Notes: generated by a model from the sequence alone, not told the origin. A stretch of 64,000 bases of DNA from Roseibacillus sp. (GCA_965242925.1 CBDEUM010000038.1:256001-320000); one strand, 5' to 3'; counted from the stretch's first letter, positions 22,968 through 36,020 are shown. Program-made: numbers and translations.

Positions 22968-24383
22968 TTATTGCTCATTCCCTTCCTTGGGCGGAGGAAC
23001 CGGGATGGGGGGAGTGGTGGCGCTGGGGCGCGGAGGAATGGCGACCGGCGGAGAGACCGCGGTAGCTGAGGGTTTGGTGCCCGCTGCGGTTGGATCCGCA
23101 TTTTCCTCAGGCTTCTCCTTCTTCTTTACGATTTCGTCACGGCCCTTATCCAGACTGCTGATGGCAAAATTAGCGAACTCATAAACACGGGTGGAGAACA
23201 CCTGTTCCAGTTCGAGCTTATACTCCAGGTTCTCCCGATTGGCTTTGAAGAGTTTCTCGGCGTTTTCAGCGTCCTCAGGGGTCTCGCCCTCCTTCTTAGC
23301 CCTCTCCTTGAGGAAGTTGGCCTCGACTTTTACGGTTCCAATATAATTGGAGGAAGGGGGGGGAGGGGCGTCATCGTCATCTCCGGCTTTTTCTTCCTTC
23401 ACGGGAGCAAACTCGAAGGTGTAGCTGAAACCGTCGAAGGTCGTGATGACTGCCTTACGGGACTTGGAGGTGTCCTGCTTCTGCTCAGCTTCCTCCGGAT
23501 CGAGGACATCCTCGAAACGGAGTTTGTCGAAGAGAGACTTGAAGGGGCCGGTTCCGGCGGTGTCCATTTCCTCGTCCTCCTTGAGGCCACCGGTGGAGAA
23601 GTCGCTATTCTCGTCGGCCCGGGTGGCTGTCCAGCCCTTGAACTCCTTGTCATTGGGAGCGCTGAGAGAGAGGCTCTTGATCTTCTTCACCTCGATGAAC
23701 TTGTAGGACAGCCAGGAGGCGGGACTGGAGAGTTGTCCACGACGCTTGTCCGTGTTCTTGGACTCCGCATCGCCGGTTGAGCGGTTGAGGGTTCCAAGGG
23801 CCTTCCAGATGCCCTGAGCTTCAGGGCGTCCTGCGGAACTGCGGACCACGAATCCTCGCGGGGCCCGGGAGGCCACCTCTCCGAATTCTTCTCCCAGGAT
23901 GACGTCTACCAGTTTGTTTTCGTCCTTCCCGGTTACGGAGATCTGTAGTCCCCGGGGATCTTCGGGGTTGTCATCCCCCGCCCCTTTCCTCTCCTCCTGA
24001 TAGGCTTCAGCCTGCTCCTTGTCCTCGGGAGAGAGGAGACCGATCTGGCTGTAGTGCTCCTCTTTGGCGCGAACCTCCAGGCCGATCTTGAACTGGACGA
24101 GGGACTTGAGAAGCTGCTGCACCTCTTTGGGGTTGTCGATGGGATAGTCCTGGCGGTTGGCCACGACCCAGTCGGCCTCCTTCTTCCTGAGGACCACTTC
24201 ATTTTCGGAGTCCTTGATCCGGATTTCCTCCACGTCGTCCTCGCTGAAGGATTTTACGAGGTATTCCCCGATCTGTTCATTGTTAGGACTGAACCGCTCG
24301 GGCGTGTTGAGAAGCATGACCGTGGCCATGATTGTACTGATGGCGGTGACTCCGATCAGAAAAAGAAGGTGTGTGTTCTTCAT
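22968..24383 (-). CDS. DUF4340-like membrane-anchored protein of a Gld-type ABC cassette
   Basis: N-terminal TM, WVV...YP, TFDGFSY motifs; start overlaps gldG-like stop. Confidence 0.65.
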   Translation of the reverse strand: MKNTHLLFLIGVTAISTIMATVMLLNTPERFSPNNEQIGEYLVKSFSEDDVEEIRIKDSENEVVLRKKEADWVVANRQDYPIDNPKEVQQLLKSLVQFKIGLEVRAKEEHYSQIGLLSPEDKEQAEAYQEERKGAGDDNPEDPRGLQISVTGKDENKLVDVILGEEFGEVASRAPRGFVVRSSAGRPEAQGIWKALGTLNRSTGDAESKNTDKRRGQLSSPASWLSYKFIEVKKIKSLSLSAPNDKEFKGWTATRADENSDFSTGGLKEDEEMDTAGTGPFKSLFDKLRFEDVLDPEEAEQKQDTSKSRKAVITTFDGFSYTFEFAPVKEEKAGDDDDAPPPPSSNYIGTVKVEANFLKERAKKEGETPEDAENAEKLFKANRENLEYKLELEQVFSTRVYEFANFAISSLDKGRDEIVKKKEKPEENADPTAAGTKPSATAVSPPVAIPPRPSATTPPIPVPPPKEGNEQ

Positions 24384-27004
24384 TTCGCTGCCGTTTTGAA
24401 TTTACGGGTGATGCCCACTAAAAGTCCGATGATGATGACGAGGGTGGGAGTGAGCAGCATGTTGGTCCATTCGTAGCTATTGATGGCGGCCTGGATCTCG
24501 GCGCGCTGCTGGCGGCTGATCTTGTTTTCATCGCGCTGGAGGTCGCGGATCTTCGTCTCGATCTCCTGGGCCTTCTCGATGCTCTCTTCGCTCTGGCCGA
24601 TGACCATGAGACCGCCACCGATATCGCGGCCCTCCTGTCCCTCTTCCAGGGTTCTGCGGGCTTCTTCAATGGCGGCCTGGATCTTCTGACGCGGCCCCGC
24701 GGCTCGTTCGGCGGCCTTTTCGCGGATGTCGTTGATCACGGTGAAGCTGCGACTGGTGGAATCACGGCCGCGGATATTCAGGAGGTCCTGATCTCCGGCG
24801 AGGTTTTCGACTAGGTTCATGATGAAGTCGACATTGTTGTTGTCACGCGCAGCTCCCCGCTCGGCATCGCCCATGAAGTAGTCGAAAAGCATGTCGACGT
24901 CGGAGATGATGGCCATCACCCCGTCCTCCGTGCCTTCAAGTTGATGGTGGTCCTCTTCCTCGGGTGGGGTGGCGACCTCTTCCTCCGAGGCCGGGGAGGC
25001 CTCAGGGGCCGGCTCTGCCTTCACCTCGGGCTCAGGATTGGCGGCTGGTGCTGGTTTTTCCTCAGCCGGAGCGGGTTCCGGCGTGTCCGGAGGAGAAGCG
25101 GGGGCCTCTTCCTCTGGCTTGGCCTCAGGGGAGGGAGCTTCTCCTTCGGTTTGTCCACAGCCCTCTGGCTCTGAGGCGGGTTCCGGGGCCGGGGCCGGGG
25201 CCGGGGCAGGGGCCGGGGCCGGGGCAGGGGCAGGGGCAGGGGCAGGGGCAGGGGCAGGGGCAGGGGCAGGGGCAGGGGCAGGGGCAGGTTGGGGAGTGTT
25301 GGTGGAATCGGGAGCGCCTTCCGGCAGGAGCGGAGCGTTTACGGGAGGGGTGCTCAGGGCTGGGCTGATAGGCGCGGGAGGAGCTTCTGCTGCAGGATCG
25401 GGCTTGGTGGGATCCTCCTGGTAGGCGGATTTAAATTTTCCCTCGAGGATCACAGCCACGGGATAGCGGTCCGTTTTGAAGTTCGCGGACTGGAAGTTGG
25501 AAGTGACCTGTTCCTGACGGGCGCCCTGACCAAGAAGGATGTGGGCCGCGTCGCCCGGCACGGACTTGGCGCGGTTTGAGGTGCTTACGAGGGTGCGCAT
25601 CTTGAGGCCGGTCCTGGGCTTGCCCACGATGGGGGAGGGGTCCACCATCTGGATCGCAGAGAGATCACGGGTGACGGGATGGTCGGCGGTCAGAGCCTCG
25701 TTCTCGAACTTGGCCATGAGGCCGTTTCCACGGAAGAGCGGTTGGGTGATCATCTGCTGGTCCTGGCGGCTCGGGATCTGCCCAAGGAGACGATTGAGGC
25801 GGAATTCGCGCTGCAGCATCTGATTCAGCGGGCGCTCAAACATGACCGGACGGGAGTACTTCGGGTCATAGAGCATGGGTTGGTCCGTGCCTCCGAGGGT
25901 GACGCCCCAGGTGGAGGTGAGATCATCGAGTCCGGAGCGGTAGTGAGCCCATCCGCTGGTCTCAAAGAGATTGTAGAGATCCTTGTACCACTGAGGATGA
26001 CGGTCCTGCGGGGTCATGGGCAACTTGGCGGAATAGATATCAAAGAACCGTGAGACGAAATGCTGGTTGTCAAGGAAGGCGATGGCCTTCCCGCCATTCA
26101 CCAGATACTGGTCGATCGCATACTGCGTTTCCTTGGAGAGGAGTTCCAGGGTGGTATTGCCCATGGGCGGCATCCCCGGTTGAGGCGACTGGGGCCGGTT
26201 GATCTTGACGGGGTGGACGATGAGGAGGAGATCGAGGCTTGCGAAGGGGTGATCCGTGTCATCGGGTTTCATGGGCCCCACGTCGAAGGGGACGTTGACG
26301 ATCTCGAAATCCCGGGCGAGGTGACGGTAGATTACCGAGGGGGGGCGTCCGGGTGCTCCCATCATTCCCTGTGAACCTCCCAGAGCCATCTCGGTGCCTT
26401 CCAGCAGGCCGATCCTGCGTTTCGATGTGCGGGTGACCGAACTGATGGCCCGGGAGAGCTGGTATTCCAGTTTCTTCTCCAGTTCAGGGTTGAGGAAGGA
26501 AATGGCCTCGATTTTTTCCAAGCTGCTCACGGACAGGCCGAAGTAATACGGCTGACTGGCCCGCTGGTTGTAGTCGTAGTCGTCGAGGTTGGAGCTTTGC
26601 GGCATGTCCATGCGGGGATCACGCTGCTGGATGCCGTCGAGTTCGGCCGCGTCCTGCGCCTCGGAGTTGGGCTTCGGCTCGAAGGCCTGCACCAAGATGG
26701 CTCCGCCGGAGGCCTTGGAGTATTCCTCAAGGAGGTCCTTCACGCGCTTGGAGTAGTCGACGTACTTCTTGGGCAGTTGCACATCATCGGGGTCGCTCAT
26801 GTAAAACCGGACCGTCACCTCCCGTCCGGAGTCCTTGGCCTTCTGGAGGATGGAACGGGTTCCCTCGGTAAGGGTGTAGACATTGCCTTCGGTAGTGTCC
26901 CACCGGGCGGTGGCCACCCGCTTGGCGATCACGTTCAGGGAGGCCACCAACAGGCAGAGGAGGAGGACAACACCCAAGGTCTTCCATCTATCTAATGCTT
27001 TCAT
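24380..27004 (-). CDS. GldG-like ABC auxiliary protein with long Pro/Ala/Glu insertion
   Basis: RWDTTEGNVYTLTEGT, VKDLLEEY, LEYQLSRAI, AIDQYLVNGGK, NLVENLAGDQDLLNIR; TM at each end. Confidence 0.8.
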   Translation of the reverse strand: MKALDRWKTLGVVLLLCLLVASLNVIAKRVATARWDTTEGNVYTLTEGTRSILQKAKDSGREVTVRFYMSDPDDVQLPKKYVDYSKRVKDLLEEYSKASGGAILVQAFEPKPNSEAQDAAELDGIQQRDPRMDMPQSSNLDDYDYNQRASQPYYFGLSVSSLEKIEAISFLNPELEKKLEYQLSRAISSVTRTSKRRIGLLEGTEMALGGSQGMMGAPGRPPSVIYRHLARDFEIVNVPFDVGPMKPDDTDHPFASLDLLLIVHPVKINRPQSPQPGMPPMGNTTLELLSKETQYAIDQYLVNGGKAIAFLDNQHFVSRFFDIYSAKLPMTPQDRHPQWYKDLYNLFETSGWAHYRSGLDDLTSTWGVTLGGTDQPMLYDPKYSRPVMFERPLNQMLQREFRLNRLLGQIPSRQDQQMITQPLFRGNGLMAKFENEALTADHPVTRDLSAIQMVDPSPIVGKPRTGLKMRTLVSTSNRAKSVPGDAAHILLGQGARQEQVTSNFQSANFKTDRYPVAVILEGKFKSAYQEDPTKPDPAAEAPPAPISPALSTPPVNAPLLPEGAPDSTNTPQPAPAPAPAPAPAPAPAPAPAPAPAPAPAPAPAPAPEPASEPEGCGQTEGEAPSPEAKPEEEAPASPPDTPEPAPAEEKPAPAANPEPEVKAEPAPEASPASEEEVATPPEEEDHHQLEGTEDGVMAIISDVDMLFDYFMGDAERGAARDNNNVDFIMNLVENLAGDQDLLNIRGRDSTSRSFTVINDIREKAAERAAGPRQKIQAAIEEARRTLEEGQEGRDIGGGLMVIGQSEESIEKAQEIETKIRDLQRDENKISRQQRAEIQAAINSYEWTNMLLTPTLVIIIGLLVGITRKFKTAAK
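25185..25286. repeat. 17 tandem copies of hexamer GGGGC(C/A), encoding (Pro-Ala)17
   Basis: Counted directly from the sequence. Confidence 0.95.
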
Positions 27005-27028
27005 GTCGACAGAGATATCGTTCGGAGT

Positions 27029-27844
27029 TCAGGCTCTCTTGTTCTGGAGGACAGTGTTGGTGATAAAGAGACAGAGCGCGATGACGCTTACGAAGTAAAA
27101 GAGGTAGCGGAGTTCGATCAGGCCCTTGGAAAAATCCACGAAGGCGGGCATCACGCTGATGGAAGCGAGGAGTTCGCCAATGAAGGAGAGGAAGCGGAGG
27201 CCACTGTCCGCGAAAAAGTCCTGCACCGGGTCGAAGCCGATAATGCAGAGCATCAGGCAGAGGGGAATGGAGACCGCCACACAGATGACCTGGCTGCGGG
27301 TGAGGGCAGAGACCGCGATGGTGACCGCGATGAAGGTGGCGCCCACGAAGAGGCTGCCAAGGTAACCCGAGATGATGGGGCCGTGATCCGGATCGCCCAG
27401 GATGGAAACGCTGATCCAGACCGAAGCAGTGAAGAAAAGGGATGCGAAGAGAAGCACAAAGCTGCCCAGGAATTTCCCGAACACCAGTTCGATGGTTCGT
27501 ACCGGCATGGTGGAGATGAGTTCGATGGTTCCCTGCCGGTGTTCGTCGGAGAGCGTGCGCATGGCGAGGAGGGGGGCATAGAAGGCCAGAACCCAGGGAT
27601 GGTAGAAGAAGAAGAAGTCCTTCAGGGCGGCTTGTTCGCTCTCAATCAGTTCCCGACCGGGCCAGAGAAAGGTGAGGGCGTTGATAGCGACCAGGAAGAT
27701 GAATATCAGCACGTAGGCCAGCGGCGAGGTGAAGAAGGACGTCGCCTCCCGGCAGAAGATGGCCCGGATGTTACTGACGAGAAGAGGCCCCCCGATCAGG
27801 ACGGCTGCGAGAACGAGGATGGCGAGGATTCCGAATGCAGACAT
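27029..27844 (-). CDS. ABC-2 permease, GldF-like
   Basis: FFTSPLAY, LAMRTLSDEHRQGTIELISTMPV, GKFLG, SALTRSQV. Confidence 0.85.
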   Translation of the reverse strand: MSAFGILAILVLAAVLIGGPLLVSNIRAIFCREATSFFTSPLAYVLIFIFLVAINALTFLWPGRELIESEQAALKDFFFFYHPWVLAFYAPLLAMRTLSDEHRQGTIELISTMPVRTIELVFGKFLGSFVLLFASLFFTASVWISVSILGDPDHGPIISGYLGSLFVGATFIAVTIAVSALTRSQVICVAVSIPLCLMLCIIGFDPVQDFFADSGLRFLSFIGELLASISVMPAFVDFSKGLIELRYLFYFVSVIALCLFITNTVLQNKRA

Positions 27845-27869
27845 AACAGCGGAAAGATAAGTGGTTCGT

Positions 27870-28592
27870 TCAGGTGGCGACTTCCGAGGTGGTCAGTTTG
27901 CGGAAGAGTTCCGTCAGGGAACCGGCTCCTTCCGACCGGAGACTCTCGGGACTGCCTTCGGCTACGATCTTGCCCTGGTCAATGATCATGGCCCGGGTGC
28001 AGGAAGCATCGACTTCCTCAAGAATGTGAGTGGAGAAGACGATGGTCTTTTCCTTGCCAAGTTCGCGGATCAGCTTCCGGACTTCGTGTTTCTGGTTGGG
28101 GTCGAGGCCATCGGTGGGTTCATCAAGGACGAGAACTTCGGGGTCATGAAGGAGGGATTGTGCCAGGCATGTGCGATGGCGGTATCCCTTGGACAGGGTG
28201 TCGATGGACTGGTGCACCACGGTTTGCAGGAAGCAGGTTTCGATCACGCGATCGACAGCTTCTTTCCGGGCCAGCCCGGAGAATCCCCGGATGCTGGCGC
28301 AGAAGCGGAGAAAACCGACAACCGTCATATCGGCATAGAGGGGGGCGGACTCGGGGAGGTATCCGATCTTCCGTTTGGCGTCCTCCGGTTGATCTGCAAC
28401 CGGGATCCCGCAGATTTTCACGTCGCCATGGGTGGCGGGGAGAAATCCGGTGATGATCCGCATGGTGGTGGATTTCCCGGCACCGTTCGGACCGAGGAAT
28501 CCAAGGACTTCACCCTTCTCTACCGAGAAGGAGAGGTCATCGACAGCTGTCTTGTGACCAAACTGCTTAGTGAGATTATTGACTTCGATCAT
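27870..28592 (-). CDS. ABC ATP-binding protein, GldA-like
   Basis: GPNGAGKST, LSKGYRHR, LDEPTDGLDPNQ, STHIL. Confidence 0.9.
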   Translation of the reverse strand: MIEVNNLTKQFGHKTAVDDLSFSVEKGEVLGFLGPNGAGKSTTMRIITGFLPATHGDVKICGIPVADQPEDAKRKIGYLPESAPLYADMTVVGFLRFCASIRGFSGLARKEAVDRVIETCFLQTVVHQSIDTLSKGYRHRTCLAQSLLHDPEVLVLDEPTDGLDPNQKHEVRKLIRELGKEKTIVFSTHILEEVDASCTRAMIIDQGKIVAEGSPESLRSEGAGSLTELFRKLTTSEVAT

Positions 28593-28799: not shown

Positions 28800-29849
28800 G
28801 TGATTCGTGCCTTGCACCTCGTTAACTTTCGCTGTTTTGAGGCCCTGAATCTCGATTTGCCGGGGGGGAGTGCGATTTTCGTGGGTGAGAATGCCCAAGG
28901 GAAAACGAGCCTGCTGGAGGCCATTTGCGTTCTGGTGCGGCTGCAGTCTCCGCGGACGCACCGGATGGGGCACCTGAGGCGTTTCGAAATGGAGGGTTTT
29001 GGAGTGGCCGGGGAGTGTTGGGGAGAGGTGCGGCGTGTCACGCGCGGGGCGGATGGTCTGGAACTGCGGATTGAAGGGGAGGTGGTGGAATCTCAGGGGA
29101 ATTATCTCAGTTCCGGGGGCCTGCTGGTCTGGATGGGAAATGAGGATCTGGAACTGGTAAGGGGGCCGGGAGAGGTGCGGCGACGGTTTCTGGATTTTGC
29201 GGCCGTCCAGCTGGAACCGACCTACCGAAGGCATCTGGCCCGCTACAAGCGAGCTCTCAAGGCCCGCAACCTTCTCTTGAAGGAACGCTTTCCGGACGAG
29301 GAGCAGATTGCCGCCTATACGACCCTCCTGATTGAACATGGCGGGATCCTGCAGCGGATTCGCGCCGCCCTCGTGGAGAAACTCGCCGGTCCCGTAAACG
29401 AGGCGCATTCGGCGGTGAGCGGGAGGAGGGAGGAGGTGGGACTGGTCTACCGGGGAGCGGGGGCCGGGGATCTTGCGGCGACCTACGCCGAGGCTGCAGA
29501 GCGGGAGCGGCGGCAGGGAAAAACGGTTGTGGGGCCCCATCGTGATGATGTGCTTCTGAGCCTGAATGGTAGCGCGGCGGCGGATTTCGGAAGCGAAGGT
29601 CAGCAACGGACCATGGCGCTGGCACTCAAACTGGGGCAGGGCCAGCTTCTGGAGCGAGAGCGGGGGAGCGCTCCGGTTTATCTCATTGACGATATCTTCG
29701 GGGAACTCGACACCCGTAGGCGCAATGCACTGATGGAATTTCTGCCGGTCGATTCCCAACAGTTGATCACCACTACCAGCATTGCGTGGATGGACAGGGA
29801 ATCTCCGCCCCTCTTCCGGGTTGGAGGTGGCATGGTGAGTGCGGAATGA
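28800..29849 (+). CDS. recF: DNA replication and repair protein RecF
   Basis: NFRC, GENAQGKTSLLEAI, RRRFLD, GPHRDD, GSEGQQR, LIDDIFGELD. Confidence 0.92.
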   Translation: MIRALHLVNFRCFEALNLDLPGGSAIFVGENAQGKTSLLEAICVLVRLQSPRTHRMGHLRRFEMEGFGVAGECWGEVRRVTRGADGLELRIEGEVVESQGNYLSSGGLLVWMGNEDLELVRGPGEVRRRFLDFAAVQLEPTYRRHLARYKRALKARNLLLKERFPDEEQIAAYTTLLIEHGGILQRIRAALVEKLAGPVNEAHSAVSGRREEVGLVYRGAGAGDLAATYAEAAERERRQGKTVVGPHRDDVLLSLNGSAAADFGSEGQQRTMALALKLGQGQLLERERGSAPVYLIDDIFGELDTRRRNALMEFLPVDSQQLITTTSIAWMDRESPPLFRVGGGMVSAE

Positions 29850-29878
29850 GCCGGGAATTGACGAAGTAGAAATGTCTT

Positions 29879-30274
29879 ATGAATGACAACCGATCAGATC
29901 TGCGGAAGGTGCTCGACCACTGGATGGAGGCAGTAAACGGACGGGCTCTCGACGACGTGCGGAGACTCTACCGGGAAGACGCGGTAATCGTGCCGACCTT
30001 CGGGAAGGATATTCTCAGTAGCACGGAAGCAATTGCAGCCTACTTCGTGGATATCACGGATGGCAGAGAGCTACGGGTAGTGGTGCGGGATGAGACCGTG
30101 CGGGAGCAGGTGGAACCCGGGTCCTCACAGGTGATCAGCGGGATCTACGATTGGCGCATTCGTGAAGATGGGGAGGAGCAGCGGATTGCGGCGCGATTCA
30201 CCTTTGTGATGGATCCCGGGAGCGAGGGGCCGATTCTGCATCACCATTCATCACGGTTGCCGGGTGAAGGTTAA
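29879..30274 (+). CDS. NTF2/SnoaL-like protein (DUF4440/SgcJ-like)
   Basis: LY..DA...PT, SGIY, ARFTFV, ILHHHSS. Confidence 0.75.
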   Translation: MNDNRSDLRKVLDHWMEAVNGRALDDVRRLYREDAVIVPTFGKDILSSTEAIAAYFVDITDGRELRVVVRDETVREQVEPGSSQVISGIYDWRIREDGEEQRIAARFTFVMDPGSEGPILHHHSSRLPGEG

Positions 30275-30357
30275 CCGGCCCCGGCACCCTTCCTTCGCCT
30301 TTGGCAGGGAAGGAGAGGCTTGAAAAGCGCGGCTGCGTATCAGTCAATGGCCGTGTC

Positions 30358-31143
30358 ATGGCTGATTTTGGTGTAACGGAGCGAACCTACGTAATCGCAG
30401 GTGGGACGACTGGCCTGGGGTTCTCGGCCGCGGAGGCCCTTGTTCGCAATGGTGCGCGGGTGGGGATTGGCAGTCGGTCGGAGGAGAGTGTGGCCAGAGC
30501 GCTGGAGGCTCTGGGGGAGAATGCTGTGGGCCGGAGTCTGAATGCCTCGGACCCGGGATCGGTTGGCGAATTGATTGAACTCACCTGCAAGCAGTTCGGT
30601 GATCTTCACGGACTTTATCACGTGGCCGGGGGAAGTGGACGTTCGGAGGGAGACGGTCCGCTGCACGAGCTCAGCGATGAAGGATGGGACTACACCATCC
30701 GGCAGAATCTCAGCTCCGTGATGCGTTCGAACCGGGCTGCGGTTCAGCGTTTCCGGCTTCAGGGCACGGGAGGAGCCATTCTGAACATGGGCAGTGTGCT
30801 TGGATTTGCACCTTCCCCGCGGCACTTTGCTGCGCACGCCTATGCGGCTTCCAAGGCGGGGATTGAAGGGTTCTCCAAGTCGCTGGCTTCCTACTATGCG
30901 GAGGAGGACATTCGAGTGAATGTTATCGCTCCCGCTCTGGTGGAGACTCCCATGTCGGGACGTGCACGGGAGAATGAATCGATCATGGAGTTTGTCAGGA
31001 GGAAGCAACCCCTGGATGGAGGGCGTATCGGAAGGACCGGAGATCTGGATGGTGCGGTCCTGTGTCTTCTGGGAGAGGCAGGGCGGTTTGTGACCGGGCA
31101 GGTCTTGTGCGTGGATGGCGGTTGGAGTGTGACGGAGGCTTGA
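30358..31143 (+). CDS. Short-chain dehydrogenase/reductase
   Basis: GGTTGLG, NMGS, YAASK, RVNVIAP, TGQVLCVDGG. Confidence 0.9.
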   Translation: MADFGVTERTYVIAGGTTGLGFSAAEALVRNGARVGIGSRSEESVARALEALGENAVGRSLNASDPGSVGELIELTCKQFGDLHGLYHVAGGSGRSEGDGPLHELSDEGWDYTIRQNLSSVMRSNRAAVQRFRLQGTGGAILNMGSVLGFAPSPRHFAAHAYAASKAGIEGFSKSLASYYAEEDIRVNVIAPALVETPMSGRARENESIMEFVRRKQPLDGGRIGRTGDLDGAVLCLLGEAGRFVTGQVLCVDGGWSVTEA

Positions 31144-31153
31144 AGGAAGGATC

Positions 31154-32065
31154 ATGAATTCACTTGGAATCGGCATCGATCTCGGAGGCACGCGTATCAA
31201 GGGGGCGGCCTTTGATCTGGCGAGTGGAGAGATGATTCATGAGGAGGTGGCTCCTGCCCGGGATGGGGAGCGGGAAGGAGATGTGCCTGCTTTTCTGTCG
31301 GAGGTGCGCAAACTGGTTGCCCGTTTCGAAGAGGTGGAGGGCCACGAAAGCGTGGTTGTGGGAGTGTCCTCTCCAGGCTTGGCCAATCGGGCGGCCAGTC
31401 AGATTATATCGATGCCGGGACGTCTGGAGGGCTTGGAGGGCCTGGACTGGCCGGAGGCCCTGGCGCGGCCGGTGACCGTCCTGAATGATGCCCATGCAGC
31501 CTTGATGGGGGAAATCTGGCAGGGGGCGGCGACGGGCGTGCAGAATGTGTTCCTCCTGACTCTGGGAACCGGAGTGGGAGGTGCAATCGTGACGGAGGGA
31601 CGCCTGTTGCGCGGCCATTTTGGCAAGGGGGGGCACCTCGGACACGCTTCACTCGACTTTCACGGTGAGCCCGACATCTGCGGAATGCCCGGGGCACTGG
31701 AGGACATGATCGGAAACCACAACGTGCGGGAACGCTCCGGGGGACGCTACGAGTCGACCCGGGAACTGGTGGAGGCGGTGAAGAAGGGAGAGGAGCATGC
31801 CCTGGAAGTCTGGGAACGCTCGGTCAGGGCTCTGGCAGTGGCAGTGGCTTCGTTTGTGAATGTTCTGGACCCTGAATTGGTGCTGATCGGGGGCGGGATT
31901 TCCGAAGCCTGGGATGAGATCGAGGGACGACTGAAGAACTGGATGGATGAATTTGAGTGGCGCCCGGGCGGCGGGCGGGTTGAGATCCGTCGCGCCGCAC
32001 TTGGCGCCATGGCGGGAGCTTATGGGGCTGCCTATTTTGCAATGCAGCGATACGACAAGGGATGA
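31154..32065 (+). CDS. ROK-family sugar kinase
   Basis: GIDLGGT, LNDAHAA, LTLGTGVGG, GHLGH; no HTH. Confidence 0.88.
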   Translation: MNSLGIGIDLGGTRIKGAAFDLASGEMIHEEVAPARDGEREGDVPAFLSEVRKLVARFEEVEGHESVVVGVSSPGLANRAASQIISMPGRLEGLEGLDWPEALARPVTVLNDAHAALMGEIWQGAATGVQNVFLLTLGTGVGGAIVTEGRLLRGHFGKGGHLGHASLDFHGEPDICGMPGALEDMIGNHNVRERSGGRYESTRELVEAVKKGEEHALEVWERSVRALAVAVASFVNVLDPELVLIGGGISEAWDEIEGRLKNWMDEFEWRPGGGRVEIRRAALGAMAGAYGAAYFAMQRYDKG

Positions 32066-32847
32066 AAGCATGTGAAGATTATCTGCGACTGTGCTCGGAG
32101 CTGCTTACGACGGTGTCCGGTCAAGGTGATGTCATCGACCAGGTGGCGGACAAGTTTGCGGAAACCATCCTGCGGGGTCGCATGGTGCACCTCTTCGGTT
32201 CCGGGCACAGCAGGATCATGGTGGAGGAGATGTGGCCACGCTACGGATCGTTTCCCGGCTGGAATCCCATTGTGGAATTATCCCTGACCTTTCATAATCT
32301 GACGACCGGGGCTAACGGACAACGTCAGGCGATGTACCTGGAGAATGTGCCCGGTTTTGCGGAGCGCATCCTGCGCAACTTCGACATCGCCGCGGATGAC
32401 GCTGCCCTCATCATTTCCTCCAGCGGCACGAGCGTGGTGCCGGTGGAAATGGCTGAAGGATTGCAGGGCAAGGGAGTGGCGGTGGCTGCGATGGTGAGCA
32501 AGAAGCACTCGGTGGCCAGTGTAGCCAAGCGGGAGGATGGCAGGAAACTCCCGGACTTTGCGGATTACCTCCTTGATACCGGAGCTCCGGTGGGTGACGC
32601 GGCAGTGGAGGTAGAGGGCCTGGGAGAGAAGGTCGCTCCACTCTCGACGGTAGGAGGGGTTATCCTGGTGAATGCCATCAAGGCGGAGGTGGCGCAACGC
32701 CTGACAGAGGGCGGAGCGCCTCCCAAGGTGCTCGCGGCGGCCTGCACGGTGGGAGGGGAGCGCTCGACAGAACTCTTTGAAGCTGCCTACGATGAGCACG
32801 CCCGTGGCATGGCCAGACTTTACGAGAACCTTGGCAAGGAATCATGA
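32062..32847 (+). CDS. SIS-domain sugar-phosphate isomerase-like protein
   Basis: LFGSGHS, IISSSG, DTGAPVGDA; ATGA overlap with the ROK gene. Confidence 0.85.
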   Translation: MKACEDYLRLCSELLTTVSGQGDVIDQVADKFAETILRGRMVHLFGSGHSRIMVEEMWPRYGSFPGWNPIVELSLTFHNLTTGANGQRQAMYLENVPGFAERILRNFDIAADDAALIISSSGTSVVPVEMAEGLQGKGVAVAAMVSKKHSVASVAKREDGRKLPDFADYLLDTGAPVGDAAVEVEGLGEKVAPLSTVGGVILVNAIKAEVAQRLTEGGAPPKVLAAACTVGGERSTELFEAAYDEHARGMARLYENLGKES

Positions 32848-33884
32848 AGGAACAACCACTGCGAACCTCGGTAGTCGGGAGTTATCCTTTCCCCGCCTGG
32901 TTGGAGTCGTGTTCGGGGCGCCTCGACGAGTTCGGCTCGAAGGACATCGAGGAAATGCAGGACGATGCCACCGCGGCGGCCATCGGCGATCAACTGCGGT
33001 CGGGGTTGGACGTGATCACTGATGGGGAGCAGACGCGCTTCGATTTCAACCTGAGCTTCTACGGTCACCTGGAGGGGATCTCGCTGGAGGCGGAGTCGCC
33101 GCGCAAGTGGGGGCCTCCTGCTCACGACCAAAGGGGCAAACACGAGGTGTGCGGCGACCTTGCAGCACCGCGGGGACTGGGGACCCTGGAAGAGTTCAGC
33201 CGGCTCAAAAGGATGGCGCCCGAGGGGCAGGCCCTGAAGGTCAGTGTGCCGGGTCCGTTTACGATGAGCGGGCGCCTCCTTCCGGGTGACCGCTACGCGG
33301 ATCGTTTTGCTCTCACCGAGGCGCTTCTGCCCCTTATTCGCAAGGAATTGGAGGATCTGGCGGATGCGGGATGCGAGGAAATCTGTGTCGATGAGCCCTC
33401 AATGAGTTGTTACGGCTACAAGGAGGACACCAGGCGTTTCGTCGACATCTTCAACCGGACCGTGGAGTCGGTTGCGGGGAGGACGCGGCTCTGCACGCAC
33501 TTGTGCTTTGGGAATTTCAAAGGGCATCCGGTGGGATATCGTCGCTACGCGCCGCTTTTTCCGGATTTTCTCGATCTGCATGTTGATGAGTTGCACCTTG
33601 AGATGGCCAACCGGGAATACGCCGAGTTGGAGGTGATCGGCGAGGTGGCCAAACGGATGGATGTGGCAGTCGGGATCATTGATGTGAAAAGCTATCTCGT
33701 CGAAACGCCCGAGATGATCGCGGAAAAGGTGAAGGCCTGCCTCGAACATGCCTCTCCCGAGCGGCTTGTCTTTGCGCCGGATTGCGGTCTCAGCCAGACG
33801 GCCCGGTGGGCAGCGAGGCAGAAACTATGCAACATGGTGGATGGAGTGCGAAGCGTGCGGGAAGAACTCGGGCTCCGGGTGTGA
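32844..33884 (+). CDS. Cobalamin-independent methionine synthase II family (single-barrel MetE-core) Zn enzyme
   Basis: VVGSYP, DVITDGE, DEP, HLCFGN, LEMA, GIIDVK, PDCGL. Confidence 0.85.
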   Translation: MKEQPLRTSVVGSYPFPAWLESCSGRLDEFGSKDIEEMQDDATAAAIGDQLRSGLDVITDGEQTRFDFNLSFYGHLEGISLEAESPRKWGPPAHDQRGKHEVCGDLAAPRGLGTLEEFSRLKRMAPEGQALKVSVPGPFTMSGRLLPGDRYADRFALTEALLPLIRKELEDLADAGCEEICVDEPSMSCYGYKEDTRRFVDIFNRTVESVAGRTRLCTHLCFGNFKGHPVGYRRYAPLFPDFLDLHVDELHLEMANREYAELEVIGEVAKRMDVAVGIIDVKSYLVETPEMIAEKVKACLEHASPERLVFAPDCGLSQTARWAARQKLCNMVDGVRSVREELGLRV

Positions 33885-33887
33885 GGA

Positions 33888-34787
33888 ATGATTGCGCCCC
33901 TGCAAAAGGACGAGGCCCTGTTGGCGGATATTCATTCAGCCGGAGGTGGGGAGGAATGCTTTCATCTCTGGTGGTTGGGACAGAGTGGTTTCCTGCTGAA
34001 GTGGGACGGCCAATTCCTTCTCTTTGACCCCTACCTTTCCGACTCGCTCACACGCAAGTATGCGGAGACCGACAAGCCGCATGTGCGCATGACGGAACGG
34101 GCGATCGATCCCGCGCGACTCGACTTCGTGAACTGCGTGACTTCAAGCCACAATCACACCGATCATCTGGACGGGGACACCCTTGCGGCAATTGCGAATG
34201 CTGGCGACGGAGTCACTCTCGTTCTTCCGGAAGCAAATATCGAGTTTGCCCAGGAGCGTCTGGGTGACGCGCCCATCAAGTATCTGGGTCTCAATGAAGG
34301 CACTCGGAAGGACAGTGGAATCTGGGAAATAGGAGGAGTGTCGGCGGCTCACAATGAGGTGGAGCGGGACGAATTGAATCGATGCCGGTTTCTAGGATTC
34401 CAGGTCGGGTTCGGACCGTTCAGCGTCTACCACAGTGGGGACACTCTTTGGCACGATCGACTGGTGGAGCAGTTTCTCGGGAGAAAACCGGATGTCGCGA
34501 TGCTGCCTATCAATGGGAACAAGCCGGAGCGGAGAGTAGCGGGAAACCTCAATGGGACGGAAGCAGCCATGCTGGCCCGGGCAATCGGGGCCCGGGTGGT
34601 GCTACCCTGCCACTATCATATGTTCACCTTCAACACCGAGGAACCGGAGGAGTTCATGGCTGCCTGTGAGCGACTGGGACAGGGTTACAAGGTCATGCAG
34701 TGTGGCGAACGGTTGACGGTGGAACCGGAGGAGACCTCCTGCGTCCGGGAGAAGAGAGTCTTGCGACCGGAGGATGGGGGGCGATGA
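33888..34787 (+). CDS. Metallo-beta-lactamase-fold hydrolase, UlaG-like lactonase
   Basis: WWLGQSGF, DPYLS, SHNHTDHLD, AAH, YHSGDT, LPING, PCHY. Confidence 0.85.
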   Translation: MIAPLQKDEALLADIHSAGGGEECFHLWWLGQSGFLLKWDGQFLLFDPYLSDSLTRKYAETDKPHVRMTERAIDPARLDFVNCVTSSHNHTDHLDGDTLAAIANAGDGVTLVLPEANIEFAQERLGDAPIKYLGLNEGTRKDSGIWEIGGVSAAHNEVERDELNRCRFLGFQVGFGPFSVYHSGDTLWHDRLVEQFLGRKPDVAMLPINGNKPERRVAGNLNGTEAAMLARAIGARVVLPCHYHMFTFNTEEPEEFMAACERLGQGYKVMQCGERLTVEPEETSCVREKRVLRPEDGGR

Positions 34788-35440
34788 TGGCTCGCATGCA
34801 TCCGGTCTTCGAGCGCCTGGGGGAGAGTCGCCTCGCGGCGGTGGTCATGATTGAGAATGAGGAGCACGCCGTTCCTCTCGCAAGGGCATTGTTGGCTGGA
34901 GGGGTCGCCGCCATGGAGTTGACCCTGCGAACTGATGTGGCCCTGGAGAGCCTGAAGCAGATTGGAATCGAAGTTCCGGAGATGATGGTGGGAGCGGGAA
35001 CAGTCCTAAGAGAAGAGCAGGTTTCAGCTGCGCGGGATGCCGGGGCGGCTTTTGGGGTGGCGCCCGGGACAAACAGGAGAATTCTGGCAGCAGCGAAGGA
35101 CGCCGGGTTCCCGTTTGCACCGGGCATTGCAACCCCGACTGACATTGAATTGGCACTGGAGTTCGATTGTCGGGTATTGAAGTTCTTTCCAGCGGAAGGG
35201 GTGGGGGGACTGAAATACCTCACCAGTATCGCGATACCCTACCGTCAGCTAGGGTTGCGTTATATTCCGCTTGGGGGGGTCCATGAGGGCAATCTCGCAT
35301 CCTACACCACCTCGCCGGATATCCTGGCGGTGGGAGGATCCTGGCTTGCGCCCAAGCCCCTCCTCGACACTGGAGACTGGAAAGGGATCGAGTCCCTCGC
35401 CCGGCGAGCCGTGGCGCTGGTCGAAGATGTGGGGGAGTAG
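34784..35440 (+). CDS. eda: KDPG/KHG aldolase
   Basis: ELTLRT, GAGTV, APG, PGIATPTD, Schiff-base Lys in LKFFPAE, PLGGV, VGGSW. Confidence 0.9.
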   Translation: MMARMHPVFERLGESRLAAVVMIENEEHAVPLARALLAGGVAAMELTLRTDVALESLKQIGIEVPEMMVGAGTVLREEQVSAARDAGAAFGVAPGTNRRILAAAKDAGFPFAPGIATPTDIELALEFDCRVLKFFPAEGVGGLKYLTSIAIPYRQLGLRYIPLGGVHEGNLASYTTSPDILAVGGSWLAPKPLLDTGDWKGIESLARRAVALVEDVGE

Positions 35441-35588: not shown

Positions 35589-35661
35589 GGCTCGGTAGCT
35601 CAGTTGGTAGAGCAGGGGATTGAAAATCCCTGTGTCGGCGGTTCGATTCCGTCCCGAGCCA
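35589..35661 (+). tRNA. tRNA-Phe (GAA); CCA not fully encoded
   Basis: Acceptor stem GGCTCGG/CCGAGCC, D-arm TAGCTCAGTTGGTAGAGC, anticodon loop TTGAAAA, T-loop GGTTCGATTCC; followed by CCT. Confidence 0.97.
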
Positions 35662-36020
35662 CCTTTACAGTCAACGAGTTAGAGCGGTTCCTTTTGTTAG
35701 AGAGTTTCCGCGGGGCCACATTGGTGCCGAGTTATTGGGGTCTAGACCAAAGATTGGGGAAAGGCCTGGTTTGTTGTTTTGGGGGGGTGGCGGTCAGGAC
35801 AACCGTTATCACCTTCGATGGAAACGCACCCGGTCGCGGTCGTCGGACGTGCCTGCTCTCCCTGAGGGGGCCAACGATGGCATGTCTGCTAGACATCATA
35901 CCGCCGTGATTCCTAGCGCATCCCAGGCGTTGGCGGCAACCGCGTCATTGGGTTTCTCCCGCCCGTGCCTCCGGTCTTTCCACCTTGCCCTGCCCGCAAC
36001 CCACAGCCAAGCTTCCCACA

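Follow-up and report, generated by a model that had tools for sequence, protein, structure and literature searches.

A conserved, apparently undescribed six-gene operon in Roseibacillus that combines a MetE-core zinc enzyme with a NagS-like SIS protein

A window of 64,000 nt from Roseibacillus sp. (the whole stretch analysed, G000:C38:256001-320000, where G000 is the source genome) carries an operon of six co-oriented genes that encodes a real, conserved and apparently undescribed pathway. A preliminary description had proposed an uncharacterised route for a modified sugar, with an embedded zinc enzyme of the MetE-core type and no dehydratase. Linkage and co-occurrence of the genes in other genomes support a conserved pathway of this kind. 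We tentatively favour, at somewhat less than even probability, a scheme in which the SIS protein performs an elimination and MetE-core moves a methyl or alkyl group from a pathway intermediate to homocysteine. No description of the six-gene module was found in the literature searched, outside which most subscription papers lay. The open reading frames (ORFs) of the operon are:

30358-31143, + strand: SDR, ORF; an alternative upstream TTG start is possible at 30301
31154-32065, + strand: ROK kinase, ORF, PF00480
32062-32847, + strand: SIS, ORF, PRK02947/UPF0309
32844-33884, + strand: MetE-core, ORF, PF01717, 346 aa
33888-34787, + strand: MBL hydrolase, UlaG-like, ORF, PF12706/PF13483
34784-35440, + strand: KDPG/KHG aldolase Eda, ORF, TIGR01182

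The orientation, families and close spacing that had been read from the sequence were confirmed by ORF and domain searches. The intergenic gaps are, in order, 10, -4, -4, 3 and -4 nt; the three overlaps, at the starts of SIS (32062), MetE-core (32844) and Eda (34784), each read ATGA. GC content is 0.603 in the operon and 0.601 in the genome.

The association of these genes was followed in the best 80 of 501 confirmed genome loci and the best 80 of 460 confirmed metagenome loci, the latter found with a Humisphaera-labelled protein as query and including many short contigs. Orthologs of the window genes were present in the genome loci for SIS (42), MBL (38), ROK (35), SDR (31, two of which are weak paralogs, leaving 29 at E 1e-30) and Eda (13); the metagenome loci contained SIS in 54, MBL in 48, Gfo in 19, SDR in 16 and ROK in 16. 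Since SIS or MBL occurs in 34/47 genome loci and 20/20 metagenome loci that have at least 5 kb of upstream and 3 kb of downstream sequence, the association is not due to chance. It also persists where the operon is broken up: 34 of the 38 genomes that lack SIS in the MetE-core locus carry it elsewhere, and among 53 carrier genomes MBL was found in 51, ROK in 46 and SDR in 43. These counts come from a set of 54 genomes selected among the carriers, in which SIS is missing from the locus in 38 and present there in 13, the other three being G066, G165 and G153. The counts are not independent, since the set is mostly of one order and mostly drafts. In a sample of 300 genomes of the phylum, the MetE-core clade was found only in G066 and G165; an SIS ortholog above 60% identity was confined to the same two genomes (11 others hold relatives of 29-34%), and MBL and SDR occurred in both plus one other genome each. 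As G066 and G165 belong to one family, this pattern reflects one or two events rather than many. The neighbourhood check suggested in the preliminary description thus had a positive outcome, the MetE-core clade travelling with SIS, MBL, ROK and SDR orthologs even when unlinked.

The MetE-core protein is predicted to form a single barrel (AlphaFold pLDDT 89), and its best structural match is MesD (3RPD; TM 0.82, 25% identity); structure match and tree alignment place it at 25-27% identity to MesD. Alignment to 3RPD gives H219, C221, E253 and C314 as zinc ligands (the zinc site and the missing N-terminal barrel had been read correctly from the start), and alignment to 3RPD and to published residues (PMC7857596) gives S13, E62 and D183 as homocysteine-binding residues. 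S13, E62 and C221 are present in 160/160 homologs, and D183, H219, E253 and C314 in at least 97%. The clade is tight, with members at ~64-99% identity and a support of 99 in a quick tree; among full-length relatives in a 50%-cluster library, identity falls from 66% to 46% at its edge. Named members are Verrucomicrobiota and Planctomycetota, and the nearest named loci belong to Roseibacillus and other Verrucomicrobiales.

All 9 NCBIfam methionine-synthase models matched by MetE-core score far under their cut-offs. With 346 aa against at least 676 aa, 61.6 against 929.95 bits for TIGR01371 and no N-terminal folate barrel, it differs from two-barrel MetE. For split MetE, PRK04326 gives 205.7 bits against 406 and no folate-binding subunit was found: the sole PF08267 match in the source genome, which is 89.9% complete, is MetE-core itself. 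In the published survey, that subunit is nearly always adjacent in split MetE, and MesD members share about 72% identity with ACIAD3523 (PMC7857596). The MesD model PRK09121 gives 127.3 bits against a cut-off of 392 (a MesD-like protein of locus L254 reaches 582); MesX (DUF1852) had 0 matches in the source genome, and control genomes were equally silent. PRK00957, which we take to be the MesA model, gives 86.1 against 258 bits, and the named carriers are Verrucomicrobiota and Planctomycetota rather than methanogens. According to the same survey, MesA occurs in methanogens only, at about 40% identity to MTH775, MesB and MesC belong to hosts with the Wood-Ljungdahl pathway, and MesC has His as second zinc ligand and Gln in place of Glu484 (PMC7857596); compared by these published residues, the window clade instead has Cys221 and Glu62. 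The protein therefore shares with the core methionine synthases (MesA-D and split MetE) a single catalytic barrel, the H/C/E/C zinc site and the S/E/D homocysteine site, and departs from them in being found in aerobic lineages, tied to sugar genes and under all matched model cut-offs. By the tests run, MetE-core is apart from MetE, split MetE, MesA and MesD; MesB, MesC and XecA were not compared directly. XecA/EtnE, the epoxyalkane:coenzyme M (CoM) transferase, is a MetE-fold zinc enzyme that alkylates a thiol in a catabolic pathway. It acts on epoxides with CoM, and its likeness to MetE-core is one of description, not of sequence comparison; no alkene monooxygenase or CoM genes were found among the scanned neighbours of MetE-core loci. 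The label "xecA1, 2-hydroxypropyl-CoM lyase" is unreliable, because it is attached both to the MesD-like gene (L254:6019-7044) and to a member of the MetE-core clade (P0423). A protein atlas lookup returned family names only for the proteins queried.

The source genome encodes MetH in two pieces (G000:C38:81367-85016, frames of 368 and 952 aa), several relatives being split alike, and MetH scores over cut-off in 20/20 carrier genomes tested. A profile search found no full MetE over cut-off in the source genome, so of the two enzymes that the preliminary description had wanted checked, MetH is present and full MetE was not detected. Its view that the MetE-fold protein is not a housekeeping methionine synthase is supported by linkage, co-occurrence and MetH in this genome and the carriers. 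A second MetE-core gene, of another undescribed clade (L083:8636-9661, G000:C14), encodes a protein that shares 25-29% identity with the window protein and retains the residues for zinc and homocysteine. It is flanked by a sodium:solute symporter and a sulfatase gene, close to a gene of the enolase superfamily, and an ortholog stands directly upstream of the module in L136. It was rejected as a partner of the window protein on account of its different distribution (11/300 phylum genomes, neither G066 nor G165). Fusions also occur among remoter MetE-core proteins (P0249, P0167, P0438), whose partners are a PfkB kinase, Kelch repeats and a domain that has a precomputed PF00285 assignment.

The SIS protein belongs to the PRK02947/UPF0309 family (237.5 bits, cut-off 135); among solved structures it is related only to 3CVJ and NagS (9EOL, SCO4393; E 2e-20), the latter a distant match at 76.5 bits. 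NagS of Streptomycetaceae dehydrates N-acetylglucosamine 6-phosphate (GlcNAc-6P) to 6P-chromogen I and also acts on N-acetylmannosamine 6-phosphate (ManNAc-6P); its essential residues are H53, R64, E94 and D179, with S91 and N228 important as well, and three distant homologs (26-36% identity) failed to dehydrate GlcNAc-6P (PMC12680351). The four essential residues are kept as H49, R60, E94 and D179 in 82/82 SIS orthologs, and equivalents of NagS S54, S119 and S121 are present. M91 and Y61 replace NagS S91 and A65 in all 82, and the N228 position is A, C, N, V or G, with N in 6/82. Other marks of NagS (at least 58.7% identity, Streptomycetaceae, a place beside dmdR1) are not shared, host and neighbours being different: NagS lies in a signalling or toxicity branch beside dmdR1 with NagA next, and the window SIS is part of a catabolic operon that also encodes a kinase, an SDR, a lactonase and an aldolase. 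Retained catalytic residues together with changed contacts suggest similar chemistry on another sugar phosphate, and the SIS protein is the likely "missing" dehydratase, acting on a substrate other than that of NagS. The earlier statement that there is no dehydratase accordingly holds for family labels only, since the sole solved relatives of SIS are 3CVJ and a dehydratase: no gene of the operon is assigned by Pfam to an IlvD/Edd or enolase-type dehydratase family, and a profile search finds no Edd over cut-off in the source genome, which has three IlvD/Edd-family genes elsewhere. A second, divergent UPF0309 SIS gene (37-39%) lies within the module at L256:15460-16221 and in L199.

The remaining enzymes fall into known families. 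SDR is assigned to Pfam adh_short_C2, with no NCBIfam model over cut-off among its best 25 matches; S146, Y162 and K166 are present in 40/40 orthologs and R40 in 39/40, and the protein is probably NADP(H)-dependent and of a module-specific subfamily. We propose that it is a C1 dehydrogenase. ROK is under the cut-off of all 12 NCBIfam models, its solved relatives include N-acetylmannosamine and N-acetylglucosamine kinases, and its slot is taken by a PfkB-type ketohexokinase-family kinase in G066 and G165 and by an FGGY kinase in the Deinococcus version. MBL, whose solved relatives are 3BV6, UlaG (2WYL) and 6HRG, keeps the HxHxDH metal motif in 77/77 orthologs and is not the UlaG L-ascorbate-6P lactonase (PRK11709, 46.9 against 306 bits); it is proposed to be a phospho-lactonase. 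Eda scores over the cut-off of its model (TIGR01182, 215.1 bits, cut-off 156.05) and is the only copy found in the source genome (one tblastn match). Relatives of MBL (38-39%) also occur on Rhizobium and Sinorhizobium plasmids (L247, L248), within another uncharacterised sugar cluster that has an FGGY kinase, SDRs, a cupin isomerase, SIS, DeoC and Eda.

Other lineages carry variants of the module. SIS orthologs (61-65%) were found on plasmids of Spirosoma, Haliscomenobacter and Persicobacter, which are 3 of 37 plasmid records with a match, in the order SDR, (ROK), SIS, FAD oxidoreductase, phosphotriesterase, (Gfo). No MetE-core or MBL lies within 36 kb on these Bacteroidota plasmids, and the plasmid search gave no member of the MetE-core clade (best 33%), an absence that applies to the plasmids alone. 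A Deinococcus aetherius plasmid carries a sugar ABC transporter, FGGY kinase, SDR (35%, same motifs), FAD enzyme (55%), phosphotriesterase (41%), Eda and an SIS that keeps all four essential NagS residues; neither MetE-core nor an annotated dehydratase occurs in the 25 kb shown. Among the 54 genomes, all Verrucomicrobiota, the FAD enzyme and phosphotriesterase were found in the same 2, and both are absent from the source genome. G165 combines the two versions (SDR, Khk-type kinase, SIS, FAD enzyme, MetE-core, MBL, an Eda-phosphotriesterase fusion, two Gfo, MFS and GH26), and in P0436 the module's phosphotriesterase (53%) is fused to a sister MetE-core. Comparison of the variants thus defines SDR, kinase and SIS as the core, to which, judged by gene content, MBL or phosphotriesterase is added as lactonase and MetE-core or the flavoprotein as a further enzyme. 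Eda is attached in three settings, namely the source lineage, the G165 fusion and Deinococcus, and SIS is the only dehydratase candidate common to the versions that carry it. A variant cluster, L255:1-7858 (G033:C131), has a regulator, the module SDR, a Khk-type kinase and a UroD/MtaA-like protein (~60% to its counterpart within the module of L144), together with a PF12831 flavoprotein other than the module's and a protein of 712 aa that matches no NCBIfam model.

Under the tentatively favoured scheme, the operon would break down a substituted sugar, most likely an O-methylated one, by a route of the Entner-Doudoroff type. ROK, to judge by its family, would phosphorylate the terminal hydroxyl of such a substrate. 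The NagS-like SIS, with its catalytic residues in place, would then remove the C3 hydroxyl across C2-C3, which with a C2 methoxy group would yield a stable enol ether, the analogue of the 6P-chromogen I of NagS. SDR would oxidise C1 to the lactone, whereby the O-methyl should become a much better leaving methyl, and MetE-core would bind homocysteine as a zinc thiolate and take the methyl from this presumed donor, giving methionine and a 2-keto-3-deoxy lactone phosphate. MBL would open the lactone, and Eda would split the resulting KDPG-type compound into pyruvate and an aldehyde phosphate; the third to fifth steps could run in other order. In other phyla the FAD oxidoreductase and the phosphotriesterase-type lactonase would do the fourth and fifth steps. 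The group removed would most simply be a methyl, because either a zinc-thiolate fold or a flavoprotein can serve and the route ends at a 2-keto-3-deoxy acid. On chemical reasoning and family knowledge, each gene would thus have a role in both versions. The retained homocysteine-binding residues make methyl or alkyl removal the best fit among the roles previously offered for MetE-core; formation of the 2-keto-3-deoxy intermediate is less supported, since SIS is NagS-like and modules without MetE-core keep SIS (in Deinococcus together with the aldolase). PurU lies between SIS and MetE-core in 10/80 metagenome loci, which hints at one-carbon balance. As to the exact substrate, a 2-O-methyl aldose is a doubtful suggestion on our part. 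Equally doubtful is a wider reading, that the clade is one more family, the fifth, of methionine synthases that need neither folate nor cobalamin, with an O-methyl sugar as methyl donor, via a NagS-type enol ether. It would mean demethylation without oxygen, P450 or corrinoid, with the carbon skeleton passing to the Entner-Doudoroff route and the PF12831 flavoprotein doing the same job in other phyla. In L018 and L020, gcvT and gcvP (glycine cleavage) directly follow the module, past a Gfo gene.

Several findings weigh against this scheme. Dehydratase chemistry outside Streptomycetaceae is unproven, given the inactivity of the three distant NagS homologs on GlcNAc-6P, and the ketose-type kinases (Khk and FGGY) that can fill the kinase slot are in keeping with SIS being an isomerase. 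Almost all more distant MetE-core relatives in the quick tree alignment also have the S/E/D and H/C/E/C residues, which are therefore ancestral and no special sign, and bulk demethylation onto homocysteine needs methionine recycling. The FAD enzyme and MetE-core are not strict alternatives, since both occur together in 7 loci and in G165; the structure search found no solved relative of the FAD family, and we know of no function for it. G033 has SDR and kinase with a different tail that includes the UroD-like protein, and neither MetE-core nor an SIS ortholog was found there. Eda is sparse: 12 of its 13 genome loci are close kin, and it was seen in 0/80 metagenome loci. The PurU loci all fall in one 34-tip subclade, perhaps through one insertion. 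Lastly, nearby glycoside hydrolases vary by locus (GH26, GH28, GH38-like, GH94), and because they disagree the neighbourhood gives no evidence of the substrate.

Four other readings were considered. We regard as unlikely an amino-sugar route in which SIS would dehydrate an N-acyl-hexosamine phosphate, SDR and MBL would oxidise and hydrolyse it, and MetE-core would bind a 2-amino-aldonate or enamide and free ammonia or an amide, giving KDPG without homocysteine. Such an aldonate is an alpha-amino acid and could use S13, E62 and D183; however, the His/Cys/Glu/Cys zinc site of MetE serves to activate thiolates. The solved ManNAc and GlcNAc kinases related to ROK and the sialate acetylesterase-family genes near some loci fit amino sugars, as do the NagS substrates GlcNAc-6P and ManNAc-6P, whereas the replacement of the NagS contacts S91, A65 and N228 and the inactivity of distant homologs on GlcNAc-6P do not (PMC12680351). 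No NagA-type deacetylase was found among the recurrent neighbours scanned, and the versions with the FAD oxidoreductase would be left unexplained. Opine and fructoselysine pathways combine an oxidoreductase, a kinase, an SIS deconjugase and Gfo/Idh/MocA, a layout similar enough to the module that its substrate might be a sugar conjugate of an amino acid or thiol (Amadori compound, opine, or homocysteine or cysteine thioether), with SIS or MetE-core cleaving the link and MetE-core binding the amino-acid part. We consider this quite unlikely. Gfo/Idh/MocA genes in 10/80 genome and 19/80 metagenome loci, a nucleoside-symporter-like MFS in some loci and the retained amino-acid site of MetE-core favour it, but SIS matched no solved deglycase and the source genome has no Gfo ortholog. 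It does have S-adenosylhomocysteine hydrolase, so that S-ribosylhomocysteine need not form, which lowers salvage of that compound as an explanation.

Most SIS proteins are isomerases or binders, and SIS could accordingly be an aldose-ketose isomerase in a route from polyol or ketose to aldonate, leaving MetE-core as the dehydratase that makes the 2-keto-3-deoxy acid. The exchange of ROK for a ketohexokinase-family or FGGY kinase and the lack of IlvD/Edd in the operon, and of Edd over cut-off in the genome, agree with this assignment. We hold it to be distinctly unlikely, as Deinococcus has Eda and SIS with neither MetE-core nor an annotated dehydratase in the 25 kb shown, MetE-core retains its homocysteine residues, and the three IlvD/Edd-family genes elsewhere in the genome could serve. 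Another reading makes MetE-core a passenger beside sugar genes, an ordinary methionine synthase that works without cobalamin, serves as a back-up and uses a general cellular methyl donor; this appears to us improbable. In its favour, MetE-core retains every zinc and homocysteine residue, a full MetE was not detected in the source genome, the gene stands apart from SIS in 38/80 genome loci, and MesD too co-occurs with MetH, in 75% of genomes (PMC7857596). Against it, the partners persist in the genome where the operon is broken up, MetE-core and SIS occur in the same 2/300 genomes, a sister clade is fused to the module's lactonase (P0436), no folate-binding half was found in the genome and no cobalamin-binding domain among the neighbours scanned.

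The favoured O-methyl sugar route would resemble a modified Entner-Doudoroff pathway joined to a NagS-type elimination and a thiol alkylation of the core-methionine-synthase type. It shares kinase, dehydrogenase, lactonase and Eda with modified Entner-Doudoroff routes; unlike them, the operon has no Edd/IlvD or enolase-type dehydratase, and the SIS elimination is proposed to precede oxidation. Demethylation is coupled to methionine synthesis by betaine-homocysteine methyltransferase and by the glycine betaine system MtgBCD (PMC12478193). Like these systems of aerobic bacteria, the module would pass the methyl of a catabolic substrate to the methionine cycle; those systems rely on a cobalamin protein or a different fold and draw the methyl from N-methyl donors, whereas here a cobalamin-free MetE barrel and, by our proposal, a sugar donor would be involved. 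Catabolism of 2'-O-methyl nucleosides, from which hydrolases release methylribose, is described as largely unexplored (PMC12709175). The module provides a concrete, testable context for three families whose functions are poorly known: a large MetE-core clade that carries the annotation methionine synthase, the PF12831 flavoprotein and those UPF0309 SIS proteins found outside Streptomycetaceae, for which the NagS paper leaves the substrate open (PMC12680351). If the scheme is true, polysaccharide-degrading Verrucomicrobiota, Planctomycetota and Bacteroidota would dispose of methylated sugars in this way, linked to methionine supply. Direct tests are possible in cultured carriers, which include Brevifollis gellanilyticus, Prosthecobacter fluviatilis, Verrucomicrobium sp. 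and Humisphaera borealis and, for the flavoprotein version, Haliscomenobacter hydrossis, Persicobacter psychrovividus and Deinococcus aetherius.

Scans for promoters and terminators in the operon region gave results at chance level. Contigs from RNA runs, 99-100% alike, cover parts of 30814-34370 (X1) or scattered parts (X6, X7, X8), and shares were <0.2 in 13/14 RNA-listed holders; transcription of the operon is not established by these contigs because they may hold DNA. Upstream on the same strand (window 28800-30274) are recF and a SnoaL-like gene, with gaps of 29 and 83 nt. This pair accompanies the operon in 9/80 genome loci, all close kin, and was for that reason left out of the module. 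Past the aldolase stop, at a distance of 149 nt, is a tRNA gene:

35589-35663: tRNA-Phe(GAA)

Farther upstream, an ABC transporter operon (22968-28592) includes at 24380-27004, on the - strand, a protein with a long Pro-Ala repeat that, read from its sequence alone, is presumably a GldG-like ABC accessory protein.

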